From the NCBI GenBank assembly GCA_016933055.1, contig JAFGBS010000034.1, forward strand, positions 90,001 through 122,000: 32,000 nucleotides of DNA, read 5' to 3'. Numbering within the stretch: the first letter of the stretch is position 1; every line of letters starts with the position of its first letter. Positions 4,741-7,539 of the stretch are shown here, one piece after another. The DNA is from Promethearchaeota archaeon (GTDB lineage Archaea > Asgardarchaeota > Lokiarchaeia > Sigyniarchaeales > Promethearchaeaceae). The position numbers and the translations under genes were made by a program. The notes below the pieces were generated by a model. It was not told the origin of the DNA. It saw only the letters and a program-made list of their open reading frames with translations, and searched no databases.

Positions 4741-5196
4741 TTATAATTTCGATCTTCTTTCCCCTTCACCCGTTATATTATTCAACACACTTTCATATTG
4801 CTTTATCACTGCATTATAGTGATTCTTACTGATATTTCCTAAAATGAATAATTGTTCTTCATTTTCAATTCGTTCATTGTACTCCGCTTCCACAGCGCTT
4901 CGAAAATTATCCGCTGTATCTAAAAGGCTGCGAACCAATTCTCGTGTATATTCTGGAATATAATAAAGATAATGAAGGTTGGGAATGGTTTCCGCTCGTC
5001 GTTCAATTAACCCAAACTCCATCATTTGTTTTATATGTTTTTCCAATGCCGGTCGTGATATACTTAATTTCTCTGCTAAGGTATCAGCTGTCAGTTCATT
5101 TTTTTCCAATAACCAGAGAATAGTTCTTCGTTTAGGATCTCGAAAAACATTAAATACCATATCCAAAAATTTATGCTGAACGAATGCTTCATCCAT
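4741..5196 (-). CDS. ArsR/SmtB-like winged-helix transcriptional regulator with C-terminal SHOCT-like helical hairpin
   Basis: FRDPKRRTILWLL...LTADTLAEKLSISRPALEKHIKQMMEFGLIE is an ArsR-type HTH. ATG at 5196 is preferred over TTG at 5211 because a TATA-like element lies about 23 nt upstream. Confidence 0.85.
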   Translation of the reverse strand: MDEAFVQHKFLDMVFNVFRDPKRRTILWLLEKNELTADTLAEKLSISRPALEKHIKQMMEFGLIERRAETIPNLHYLYYIPEYTRELVRSLLDTADNFRSAVEAEYNERIENEEQLFILGNISKNHYNAVIKQYESVLNNITGEGERRSKL

Positions 5197-5203
5197 AATA
5201 TTA

Positions 5204-5226
5204 AGTTGCAACTCTTGGTTATAACC
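5204..5226 (-). promoter_or_regulatory. TATA-like element (TTATAA, 5219-5224) and palindromic operator candidate AGTTGCAACT (5204-5213) for the ArsR gene
   Basis: Two perfect 10-bp palindromes read directly: AGTTGCAACT and GGTTATAACC. Spacing to ATG 5196 fits a leaderless archaeal promoter with an operator between TATA and start. Confidence 0.5.
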
Positions 5227-5289
5227 TTGACGTTCGCTTAAGCTAAATGGTTAAAGACATTAATTGCTTAGTTTAATCATATCATCAAA

Positions 5290-5351
5290 ATCTGCAACGA
5301 AAAACCATCCAGCGTAACCCAAAAGACAACTGGTGCAATTTGCTTTAAATA
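5290..5351 (+). promoter_or_regulatory. TATA-like element (TTTAAATA, 5344-5351) of the bactofilin-like gene with two degenerate TGCAA-core sites
   Basis: ATCTGCAACG (5290-5299) and TGGTGCAATT (5331-5340) each match AGTTGCAACT at 7/10 positions; the second lies just upstream of the TATA box. Confidence 0.4.
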
Positions 5352-5403
5352 GATTCATTCAATCTTACACTTACAAATAAAACAATAATAGTGATAAAAC
5401 AAC

Positions 5404-6426
5404 ATGACACAATATGATGATAGTGTATATGAAGAAATCTTGAAGGAACTAGAAAATTCTTTCAAGGAGGGAAAAATTGATGAATCCTCTTATCAGGATT
5501 TGAAACAAAGATATGTTAAGAAATTGGAGGAGGCAAAAGCCCGAAGAGAGGAAACACGAACCATTATGAATTTTCAAGTATCCGGTTCACAGAGAGTAAC
5601 GGATGATGCGGTTAAAATATCAGGGTCTGCGAATTTACCCGGAGGAGTCATACCAAAAATAATCAAAATCGCTGGATCGGGAAGAATCGAGTCGGATATT
5701 GAGTGTAATGGATTGAGATGTGCAGGAAGCTTGCATGCAGGTGGTAGAATCTTGAGTCATGGTGATATCCATGTAAGTGGGTCATTCCATGGAAACAATT
5801 CTGTTTTGGTCGAAGGTGATGTCGACGTTTCTGGGTCCGCCAAAGTGGACGGAGATTTTGATGCATCGGGTATCATTACGGTTTCAGGTTCTATGAAAGC
5901 AGATGGAGATGTAAATGCAAAAGGTGGAATTCGAGTGTTTGGTTCAGGTAAAGTCGATGGAAACATGTACTCAGATAAAGAAGTTGATATAAAAGGATCC
6001 GTCAAAATTGATGGATCAGTAGTAGCAGAGACTGTTAAATTCACAACACCTCATGTATTCAAAAGATTGATTCGCCGTCGAGGAAGATCCCAAGTAGATG
6101 GAGATATTCTAGGAAAAGAACTGGTAGAAATTGAGAATATCGAAGTGGATGGGGATGTACGTGGTAAAATAGTGAAAATCGGACCAAATTCGAAAATTTC
6201 AGGAAATATCGAATTTGTTGAGGATCTAATAATAGCTGAAGATGCTGAATTGGAGAATCAACCCATGAAAGTTAGTCCGCATTCCATTGGGGTACCTACG
6301 AATTCCTCCAAAGAATATAAAGACGAATCTCCCAATGCGGTTCCAAAATTCTGCCCGAAATGTGGGCAAGAAGTCGGAAAAGGGTTGAAATTTTGCCCAG
6401 CTTGCGGTTCAGAACTAAGTTCCTAA
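5404..6426 (+). CDS. Polymer-forming cytoskeletal (bactofilin-like) beta-helix protein with N-terminal SHOCT-like motif and C-terminal double zinc ribbon
   Basis: Central repeats such as VSGSAKVDGDFDASGIIT / VSGSMKADGDVNAKGGIR; tail GDVRGKIVKIGPNSKISGNIEF resembles Firmicute bactofilin-like proteins; C-terminal FCPKCG-x8-FCPACG. Confidence 0.8.
   Translation: MTQYDDSVYEEILKELENSFKEGKIDESSYQDLKQRYVKKLEEAKARREETRTIMNFQVSGSQRVTDDAVKISGSANLPGGVIPKIIKIAGSGRIESDIECNGLRCAGSLHAGGRILSHGDIHVSGSFHGNNSVLVEGDVDVSGSAKVDGDFDASGIITVSGSMKADGDVNAKGGIRVFGSGKVDGNMYSDKEVDIKGSVKIDGSVVAETVKFTTPHVFKRLIRRRGRSQVDGDILGKELVEIENIEVDGDVRGKIVKIGPNSKISGNIEFVEDLIIAEDAELENQPMKVSPHSIGVPTNSSKEYKDESPNAVPKFCPKCGQEVGKGLKFCPACGSELSS
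5572..6042 (+). repeat. Protein-level ~18-aa tandem repeat (three 6-residue beta strands per coil)
   Basis: [IV]xGS recurs at about 17-18 aa spacing roughly 7 times in the translation (IAGS, CAGS, VSGS x3, VFGS, IKGS). Confidence 0.75.
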
Positions 6427-7539
6427 ACTTCTTTTCTTTTTCCACCTAATACCTATGAGAACACTGACTATTGTGACTATCCCCACTCCACTTATAGAAC
6501 CGATAATCATCCATACGGTCCAATTTTTTTTCCAATTGGATTTTCCATGGTAGGTGTACATGAAGGATTCTACCGTTCTTCCTGTGACTTTTAAACTATC
6601 TATATCAATATTATCTAAATTATCCTCATGTGTATGATGGTGTGTCCAAGGACCCTCCACAAAATCGATAATCAAATCAAGAGTGGGCATAATAGGGCGA
6701 AAATAGATATGATCATCTGTTATGTATCTCTTAGTGGGATTCTTTGGAAATTGAAATAAATAACCTAACTCTCTCCCTTCGCTGAACACAGCTTGCTGAA
6801 GATCATTATTGGAGTATAATTCATCCATAAACTGAAGACTGTGTCCCCCAACCATGTCGAGCAATAAGAAAAAAGAAAAAGTCTCGGTAGAATTATCAAA
6901 AAAATCATGAATTGTGCTGCTGAATTCGCGAGCTCCTTCTGCCCAATACCAATCTGCTATCCCACCTCCTCCTTGATCCTCTGCATCTAAAAATAAGAAC
7001 CAGATCTGACTATTAAACTCCTCTCGATGGTTGTAAAAAACTCTAGCTAATTCTAAAGTAACTGCAACTCCCGAACCCCCATCATTTGCACCAGGAATTG
7101 GTTGAGTTGTATTGATTGTATCTTTCTCAGCAATTGCACGGGAGTCCCAATGTGCTCCAATGATAATAATATTGGATTTATTTGTATTCAATTTTCCCAA
7201 AATGTTCTGACAATAAATCGGTTCCCCTTGTGGTCCTGGTAGAGAAAATTGATGGGTTACCACTTCGTCAGTAACGGCGTAAAGTTGACTTCTAATCCAC
7301 TCAGCGCATGCATTGTGTTCAATCGTACCAGGAACTCGGTATCCAAATTCTAGCTGTGTACGAATGTCTTCATATGCATGTGTTGCATTGAATTCGGTTG
7401 GAAGGTGTACCGAGGAAATTGGATGGGTAGAATCATCAGAAAAAATTACTGGGGCTATTATAGACAAACTAGCTAAAGCTGCTAAAAATAAAACTATTAC
7501 TAACTTTTTTAGATGCTTTGAAGATTTCATACGATTCAA
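6415..7539 (-). CDS. Secreted, C-terminally membrane-anchored M28 zinc protein, type-II glutaminyl-peptide cyclotransferase-like
   Basis: Signal-peptide-like N-terminus; GAHWDSR, PGANDGGSGVAVTLELAR, FLDAED, LLDMVG, TDDH, HHHTHED; C-terminal TM followed by a basic tail. Start may be ATG at 7530. Confidence 0.8.
   Translation of the reverse strand: MNRMKSSKHLKKLVIVLFLAALASLSIIAPVIFSDDSTHPISSVHLPTEFNATHAYEDIRTQLEFGYRVPGTIEHNACAEWIRSQLYAVTDEVVTHQFSLPGPQGEPIYCQNILGKLNTNKSNIIIIGAHWDSRAIAEKDTINTTQPIPGANDGGSGVAVTLELARVFYNHREEFNSQIWFLFLDAEDQGGGGIADWYWAEGAREFSSTIHDFFDNSTETFSFFLLLDMVGGHSLQFMDELYSNNDLQQAVFSEGRELGYLFQFPKNPTKRYITDDHIYFRPIMPTLDLIIDFVEGPWTHHHTHEDNLDNIDIDSLKVTGRTVESFMYTYHGKSNWKKNWTVWMIIGSISGVGIVTIVSVLIGIRWKKKRSLGT

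Follow-up and report, generated by a model that had tools for sequence, protein, structure and literature searches.

A divergent gene pair of ArsR-type regulator and bactofilin in Asgard archaea with similar terminal hairpins: a candidate for bactofilin-coupled transcription

In a 32,000-nucleotide stretch of a Promethearchaeota archaeon genome (hereafter the window; G000:C11:90001-122000 in a 3.76-Mb Asgard, Promethearchaeota-type assembly), we found that a gene for an ArsR-type winged helix-turn-helix (wHTH) regulator of 151 amino acids (aa) (4741..5196, minus strand) and a bactofilin-family gene of 340 aa (5404..6426, plus strand) form a head-to-head pair that is conserved across deep Asgard lineages. 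A first-pass annotation of the window had described this layout across about 207 bp, and the start codons are indeed 207 bp apart. Comparison of the loci supports a conserved functional gene pair, and the two genes very probably constitute a dedicated regulator/bactofilin module acting through their shared promoter. Each protein also carries a two-helix hairpin, C-terminal in the regulator and N-terminal in the bactofilin, and the similarity between these hairpins exceeds compositional chance. We suggest, with a probability of about 0.4, that the bactofilin captures its own regulator through the two hairpins.

The pairing, which had been read from a single locus, was found again in related genomes. 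Searches of 301 Asgard genomes, with both proteins and the hairpin profile as queries, showed the divergent pair in four families (the labels f1, f7, f24, f16, f27 and f2 are anonymous, and taxon names were taken from named database matches). Both genomes of the window's own genus within f1 encode the regulator (other f1 genera, 0/5) and have the divergent bactofilin, and two further metagenome contigs bring this to 4/4 loci. In the Heimdallarchaeaceae-type family f7, the regulator occurs in 27 of 28 genomes, with a divergent bactofilin at 18 of the 27 loci, contig ends at two and other neighbours at seven. All 19 regulator loci of the Hodarchaeales-type family f24 (19/21 genomes) face a bactofilin, as do at least 4 of the 11 loci in f16, where every genome (11/11) encodes the regulator. 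A more distant regulator is found in 3/3 genomes of f27, and none of the three loci fetched has a divergent bactofilin. Regulator identity across the lineages with the divergent pair falls to 27-47%, and bactofilin orthologues are 47-70% identical. Both hairpins persist in every lineage though the sequences change, even at 27-30% regulator identity.

The shared intergenic region holds a candidate operator. An operator-like pseudo-palindrome, TTAAGCTAAATGGTTAA (5238..5254; TTAACC-N-AGCTTAA on the minus strand), lies just upstream of the TATA-like box of the regulator (5219..5224, minus strand, about 25 nt upstream of the ATG), which is a conserved block in four aligned f1 intergenic regions. 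A second half-site, AACCATNNAGC, stands at 5303..5313 on the plus strand, inverted relative to 5242-5252; these are the only two AACCATNNAGC matches in the window (0.28 expected), and the inverted pair sits between two conserved TATA-like boxes. The other box, TTTAAATA (5344..5351, plus strand, about 55 nt upstream of the bactofilin ATG), is kept in all four f1 intergenic regions and is the putative bactofilin promoter; the box of the regulator would likewise be its promoter, giving a presumably leaderless transcript. The intergenic regions cannot be aligned across lineages, yet they have in common the pseudo-palindrome TTA(A)ACC-N3-6-RGYT[AT]A. Its strict form, TTAACC-N3-6-RGYTWA, was found in 17 of 23 orthologous intergenic regions (f1, f7, f24) versus 0.04 +/- 0.19 in shuffles, statistics that are generous because the pattern was defined after looking at the same sequences and many of the loci are related. 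The strict pattern has one match in the window and 17 in the whole 3.76-Mb genome. A site common to families whose spacers otherwise cannot be aligned is nevertheless an argument that this promoter is where the wHTH protein acts. Five further intergenic copies (G000:C30:103307, C30:99621, C19:10420, C24:24662 and C35:4104), the first of which, TTAACCATCTAGCTAA, is very close to the site in the window, may mark other targets of the regulator.

The regulator gene starts with ATG at 5196; the TTG at 5211 selected by the open reading frame (ORF) finder is upstream of the orthologue starts, and the orthologues open MDE(D/E). Its ArsR-type wHTH domain (aa 25-70; 4987..5124, minus strand) matches the Pfam profiles HTH_5 and HTH_20, with 36.2 bits for HTH_5 against a cut-off of 22, in keeping with the ArsR/SmtB profile definition. 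An AlphaFold2 model of the regulator, built from our own alignments, reached a predicted local distance difference test (pLDDT) score of 90.5 (above 90 over the wHTH domain), and Foldseek matched it to SmtB, CzrA, HlyU, PH1932 and Phr. None of the metal-sensing sites of the ArsR/SmtB family (Cys-rich alpha3/alpha3N or His/Asp/Glu alpha5) was found in the regulator, the sequence of which contains zero cysteines, and the NCBIfam HTH_metalloreg profile scored 43.9 bits, under its cut-off of 55; the regulator is thus not a classical metal sensor. In the model, the wHTH is followed by a 37-residue helix (82-118), a turn (L119-G120-N-I-S) and a helix (124-142), and the C-terminal bihelical hairpin (aa 106-142; 4771..4881, minus strand) was also delimited by orthologue alignment and hhalign. 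Residues E111, Q115, L119, G120, K124 and Y127 are invariant among the orthologues.

The bactofilin assignment rests on a match to Pfam Bactofilin (PF04519) in two stretches, with 49.5 bits versus a cut-off of 27.9 (E 5e-13). The AlphaFold2 model (own alignments; pLDDT 87.8) begins with a helix (6-21), a turn (E22-G23-K-I-D) and a second helix (27-54), which make up the N-terminal bihelical hairpin (aa 6-54; 5419..5565, plus strand), likewise recovered from orthologues and by hhalign. Across the orthologues, L13, I25, Y30 and Y37 do not vary at all, and G23 and K34 hardly vary. A beta-helix follows (aa 58-277; 5575..6234, plus strand; pLDDT 95-98), predicted at 58-213 and 229-277 with regular strands of 3-4 residues and split by a short basic helix (217-223), and then a disordered linker and a zinc ribbon (CPKC...CPAC; 6343..6417, plus strand; Pfam Zn_Ribbon_1, 29 bits versus a cut-off of 25). 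The zinc ribbon is limited to Lokiarchaeial orthologues; those of f7, f24 and f16 are without it. The short, regular windings of the model agree with the right-handed beta-helix expected of a bactofilin. Foldseek of the model against the PDB gave generic beta-helices only, with E values of at least 0.05. A second hairpin-bearing bactofilin with a zinc ribbon, 54% identical, is encoded in the same genome at G000:C28:19083-20153 (L055:3084-4154, plus strand), where it follows a possibly FeoB-like 621-aa ORF and has no regulator beside it. This paralogue could be a second client of the single regulator; the genome-wide pattern search found no copy of the operator-like pattern upstream of it.

The hairpin motifs themselves, F117-L138 of the regulator (encoded at 4783-4848, minus strand) and F20-L41 of the bactofilin (5461-5526), translate exactly as first quoted, and the ungapped register proposed for them in the first-pass annotation was reproduced by profile-profile comparison with hhalign. 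Orthologue alignments further demonstrated that the motif is kept in both proteins across deep Asgard lineages. In the AlphaFold2 models, both motifs lie at the turn of a helix-turn-helix hairpin, and the conserved positions coincide when counted from the glycine: -10 (I/L), -6 (E), -3 (F), 0 (G), +2 (I), +7 (Y), +11 (K), +14 (Y) and +18 (L). Comparison of hairpin profiles from the closest lineages (f1+f7) gave E 7.6e-4 and a score of 21 versus 10.1 +/- 2.6 for column shuffles. With all lineages pooled, the probability was 79%, E 1.6e-5, and the score of 26.5 lay about 9 standard deviations above the shuffles (8.2 +/- 2.0, maximum 16); the same register was recovered separately in four lineages. 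The signal from single sequences is weak: in searches of all ORFs of the genome, neither partner was genome-significant, as the hidden Markov model (HMM) of the bactofilin hairpin gave the regulator rank 13 among 7352 ORFs (E 1.9), and with the HMM of the regulator hairpin the bactofilin came 169th. A complex prediction for regulator aa 80-151 with bactofilin aa 1-58 (own alignments, run without controls) returned a median of 0.22 versus a mark of 0.32, which speaks neither for contact nor against it.

The hairpins had been called SHOCT-like, a name that stands for motif, in part, and for predicted fold, while a match to the Pfam SHOCT family is absent. The motif reads G-K-I-D-E-S-S-Y in the bactofilin and G-N-I-S-K-N-H-Y in the regulator, a partial match to the SHOCT pattern G-x-I-[ST]-x2-E-[YF], and a hairpin fold in terminal position is predicted by both AlphaFold2 models. 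Pfam SHOCT (PF09851) gave no match at E <= 10 on either window protein or on the cut segments, nor at these positions in a six-frame search of the genome, and an NCBIfam scan of the window proteins for SHOCT found nothing. Sub-threshold SHOCT matches were obtained in f16 orthologues and in the more distantly related metagenome contig L061 (E 3e-4 to 0.1; 11.6-20.9 bits versus a cut-off of 27), and both hairpin types gave sub-threshold matches to the same C-terminal part of the GvpG profile (E 1e-3 to 0.1). SHOCT domains resemble the window hairpins in being terminal and bihelical with the pattern G-x-I-[STD]-x3-[YF]-x3-K, whereas the window hairpins have a longer second helix and a second conserved Tyr, with no profile match. 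In this text, SHOCT-like therefore describes motif and fold and implies no family membership. A search of 1.84 billion representatives with the regulator profile yielded further full-length relatives ending in the canonical G-x-I-[STD]-E-E-x-Y. Three of these have readable neighbourhoods: on L061, the regulator relative is divergent to a bactofilin that starts with a SHOCT-like hairpin, and the motifs of this pair are more canonical; on a second metagenome contig (L062, 1961-2823 and 358-1948), it is divergent to a bactofilin-like protein lacking the hairpin, together with a LiaF-TM miniprotein of 61 aa and an ATP-binding cassette (ABC) transporter; the third has no such neighbour. On L062, this regulator family stands in a Lia/Psp-like envelope-stress setting.

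A bactofilin that holds its own regulator is known from bacteria. In Bacillus subtilis and Geobacillus, BacR (YhbD, DUF4004) regulates the yhbDEF bactofilin operon. Pull-downs showed binding of BacE and BacF to BacR, electrophoretic mobility shift assays showed that they abolish its binding to DNA, and the two bactofilins also keep BacR at the membrane (Velten et al. 2026, PMC13649987). This partner switch is in essence what the first-pass annotation had proposed for the window pair. Both systems encode a small HTH regulator beside long bactofilins, and the conserved adjacency of the bacterial genes is found in the Asgard pair as well. Among bacterial proteins, P0057 (Bacillus) and P0049 (Clostridium) are closest to the Asgard bactofilin, with E values of 1e-9 to 1e-11; both are encoded directly downstream of DUF4004 genes, which places the Asgard bactofilin in a broad BacE/F-like branch. 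The systems differ in that the Asgard regulator is, by Pfam scan, an ArsR-type wHTH protein and not a member of DUF4004, genes for which turned up only next to the bacterial relatives, and that the Asgard genes are divergent instead of forming an operon. A further difference is the bihelical hairpin, which both Asgard partners carry and BacR-type and BacE/F-type proteins do not.

On this basis, we propose that the metal-site-free wHTH regulator would bind the TTAACC-N3-6-RGYTWA pseudo-palindrome in the 207-bp promoter region and from there control both the divergent bactofilin gene and its own gene, the sign of this regulation being itself a presumption. The hairpins would be tags for protein-protein assembly, by means of which the bactofilin polymer would capture the regulator, and the amount of free regulator, and hence transcription, would report the state or amount of bactofilin by the same logic as in BacR and BacE/BacF. 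Capture through the hairpins is favoured because both partners have retained one class of module despite deep divergence, because of the BacR precedent (PMC13649987), and because steadiness-box relatives of the hairpins, described below, hetero-assemble. It is also favoured by the existence of hairpin-less Promethearchaeota bactofilins (225-253 aa) where regulator matches are few and weak, as in the f2 family (4/69, about 1e-6). The conserved divergent adjacency, the operator-like site, the pair on L061 and the position of the genes for P0057 and P0049 after DUF4004 genes count in favour of the proposal as a whole.

Several observations weigh against capture through the hairpins. The predicted bactofilin interface of BacR lies near its HTH (PMC13649987), and the hairpin is, as said, missing from both bacterial partners. 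At the loci of seven f7 genomes, of all three f27 genomes and of L062, the hairpin regulator has no neighbour with a hairpin; conversely, some hairpin bactofilin paralogues, such as the C28 protein and f7 paralogue B, have no regulator next to them. Archaeal wHTH regulators such as Phr and PH1932 homodimerise via their long C-terminal helices. A lineage-by-lineage hhalign matrix showed that hairpin pairs from within a lineage are no more alike than pairs across lineages, with no sign of co-evolution. Finally, a single ancestral event and vertical descent since then could account for the co-occurrence of the two genes.

Many of these points fit an ordinary divergent regulator-target pair with no physical coupling, in which the regulator hairpin forms a homodimer bundle, the bactofilin hairpin serves its own dimerisation, bundling or capping, and both descend from a generic hairpin. 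We regard this explanation as a serious, if tentative, one: in addition to the lack of covariation and the solitary occurrence of each hairpin, it is consistent with the conserved operator-like site, with the wide spread of the hairpin class on unrelated Asgard proteins, and with the closest structural neighbours of the regulator, PH1932 and Phr, having long C-terminal helices. Phr (2p4w) and PH1932 (1uly) were the best whole-chain Foldseek matches, with a wHTH followed by a long helix as in the regulator, although full-length TM-scores are low (0.41-0.45) and both have extra C-terminal domains; we know of no link of either to a bactofilin. An uncoupled pair, however, leaves unexplained why this hairpin class is retained on both partners in four Asgard families and beyond, and why the hairpin-less bactofilins examined come from lineages in which the regulator is rarely found; moreover, the BacR precedent demonstrates that binding of the regulator does take place in the related bacterial subfamily of bactofilins (PMC13649987).

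Where f7 regulators have other neighbours (seven genomes), a hairpin-bearing bactofilin paralogue is still encoded elsewhere in the genome. In these genomes (G142, G145, G151, G154, G157, G196 and G208; L025, L028-L033), the adjacent bactofilin is lost and the neighbour is a 436-aa acidic-tailed or a 445-aa protein. No hairpin motif was found in the neighbours of bactofilin-less regulators (the f7 subset and f27), so there is no evidence of a 'partner swap'. A 163-aa gene follows the regulator in every f7 locus with neighbours listed. The regulator profile gave 10,001 representative hits; judged by lengths and matched ranges, no fused regulator-bactofilin protein was apparent among the best 150, and several of the longer ones contain 2-11 matched stretches, suggestive of wHTH units in repeat.

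An improbable alternative is that both hairpins are membrane-proximal anchors, which would co-localise regulator and bactofilin without contact between hairpins, release of the regulator from the membrane being the switch. SHOCT-like domains have been proposed to anchor diverse domains at the inner membrane leaflet, and DUF2089 proteins (ZnR-HTH-SHOCT-like) were catalogued beside SHOCT-like-Toastrack proteins of the YvlB/LiaX type (PMC11237479). The recruitment of BacR to the membrane (PMC13649987) and the L062 locus, which couples a regulator relative to a LiaF-TM miniprotein and an ABC transporter, also fit such anchoring. As read from their sequences, however, both hairpins are highly charged, with one narrow hydrophobic stripe per helix, and no transmembrane or lipid-binding feature was detected in them; the anchoring role of SHOCT-like domains is itself a prediction. 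That two amphipathic helical segments resemble each other in this motif by chance, with no common function, would agree with the single-sequence HMM ranks and with the lack of a Pfam SHOCT match, but is made most improbable by the profile score far above column shuffles, the same register in four lineages, the conservation of both motifs under deep divergence and a third hairpin family that links the two transitively.

That third family belongs to a wider class of hairpins in Asgard archaea. The bactofilin-hairpin HMM matched the C-terminal hairpins of unrelated 160-270-aa proteins in other Asgard families, with E values of 1e-8 to 1e-11 per genome; about a dozen of these proteins (L064-L073) have a motif nearly identical to that of the bactofilin hairpin. 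By hhalign, this family matched the bactofilin hairpin with 98.2% probability (E 3e-14) and the regulator hairpin with 89.5% (E 2e-6), in the same register, and the transitive link strengthens the case for one module. In genome G017, the same HMM matched (E 1.7e-8) the C-terminal hairpin of a protein encoded at L074:2920-3633 (minus strand), which has a UEV/E2-variant domain and a sub-threshold match to Vps23_core and is encoded directly upstream of VPS28 and EAP30 genes. These domains and this context identify the protein as an Asgard Vps23 of the endosomal sorting complex required for transport I (ESCRT-I), and its hairpin as a steadiness box. The ESCRT-I headpiece is formed by the packing of such boxes, helical hairpins homologous to each other (PMC10936438, PMC9192718). 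The Asgard steadiness box has the motif L-L-x2-L-E-x5-G-x-I-[SD]-x3-Y-x2-L-K-x-K-Y and resembles the window hairpins in being a terminal hairpin matched by the bactofilin-hairpin HMM; it differs in that no ESCRT genes accompany the window pair and that the likeness is seen only via Asgard steadiness-box sequences. Vps23_core gave no match on the window proteins and no solid match in their genome. Taken together, the profile matches suggest that SHOCT-like and steadiness-box hairpins are one homologous module family.

A bolder, and in our view doubtful, extension would treat the window hairpins as a hetero-assembling headpiece of the steadiness-box family, in which a bactofilin polymer docks its own transcription factor via a hairpin bundle to form a cytoskeleton-tethered transcription switch, and bacterial SHOCT, archaeal CdvA/steadiness-box and eukaryotic ESCRT-I hairpins would be one ancient assembly tag. 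Sequence searches of the PDB with the hairpin profiles gave marginal, non-significant matches only, among them the N-terminus of the TFIIA large subunit (1nh2_B / 6gyk_U, E 0.011) and the G-E-I-[ST]-x-x-E-F motif of the phycobilisome linker ApcE. The N-terminal helices of Toa1 form a four-helix bundle with the small TFIIA subunit. Besides the C28 bactofilin, the genome of the window encodes a 310-aa protein (G000:C17; L006:1441-2373, minus strand) that combines a zinc ribbon at the N-terminus with an acidic linker, a coiled coil and a pair of SHOCT-like motifs. The hairpin profile matched it with E 0.03 and has no further matches in this genome; the architecture of the protein recalls the Znr-CC-...-SB proteins of Asgard ESCRT systems.

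Two further systems invite comparison. The first-pass annotation had likened the pair to bacterial genes in which an HTH protein with a SHOCT-like part stands beside a SHOCT-like beta-helical protein, and this analogy is documented (PMC11237479). In both cases, an HTH protein ending in a SHOCT-like hairpin is encoded beside a beta-helical protein starting with one, and a zinc ribbon is part of the system. In the Asgard pair, however, the beta-helix is a bactofilin, the HTH is of ArsR type, the host is archaeal, and the zinc ribbon is on the filament protein, in the Lokiarchaeial lineage only. Toastrack membership was rejected on the model and on the Pfam scores; a Pfam scan gave no DUF2089 or Toastrack (DUF4097/DUF2807/DUF2154) match on the window proteins; DUF2807 appeared only at E 0.002 in an f24 orthologue and at 23.8 bits, against a cut-off of 24.2, in L061. 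The halofilins HalA and HalB are archaeal bactofilin-family proteins with extra helices, and HalA homologues were reported in Asgard archaea (PMC11459167). HalA consists of two head-to-head bactofilin subdomains joined by a helical hairpin, and a paired regulator is not described in that paper. The window bactofilin, in contrast, has an N-terminal hairpin and one continued beta-helix with an inserted short basic helix in its AlphaFold2 model, and a HalA-type architecture was rejected on the model and on the Pfam scores.

The claim of novelty made for the pair has to be divided. A literature search found no paper on SHOCT together with bactofilin and no published description of the archaeal hairpin pair; a partner switch between bactofilin and regulator has, however, been shown in B. 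subtilis. If the hairpins dock, Asgard archaea would possess a simple two-gene feedback device in which a cytoskeletal polymer controls its own transcription factor via a portable two-helix tag, and the partner switch of Bacillus would reach into archaea, built there on another regulator fold and with an interface that is defined and transplantable. While the bacterial precedent is already published (PMC13649987), the link of the Asgard module to ESCRT-I hairpins was unexpected; it suggests that one hairpin type may be a general assembly tag in Asgard archaea, which bears on the building of eukaryote-like complexes. Because the two proteins are small and soluble-looking and come with a candidate operator, hairpin-mediated capture can be tested in vitro without culturing the organism.

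The 3' end of the bactofilin gene overlaps by 12 nt (6415-6426) with a convergent M28 peptidase gene (6415-7539, minus strand). The order major facilitator superfamily transporter, 230-aa protein, regulator, bactofilin and M28 peptidase is kept in two related contigs, L057 and L058, and the 230-aa neighbour has weak signal-peptidase (S24/S26) matches at best.

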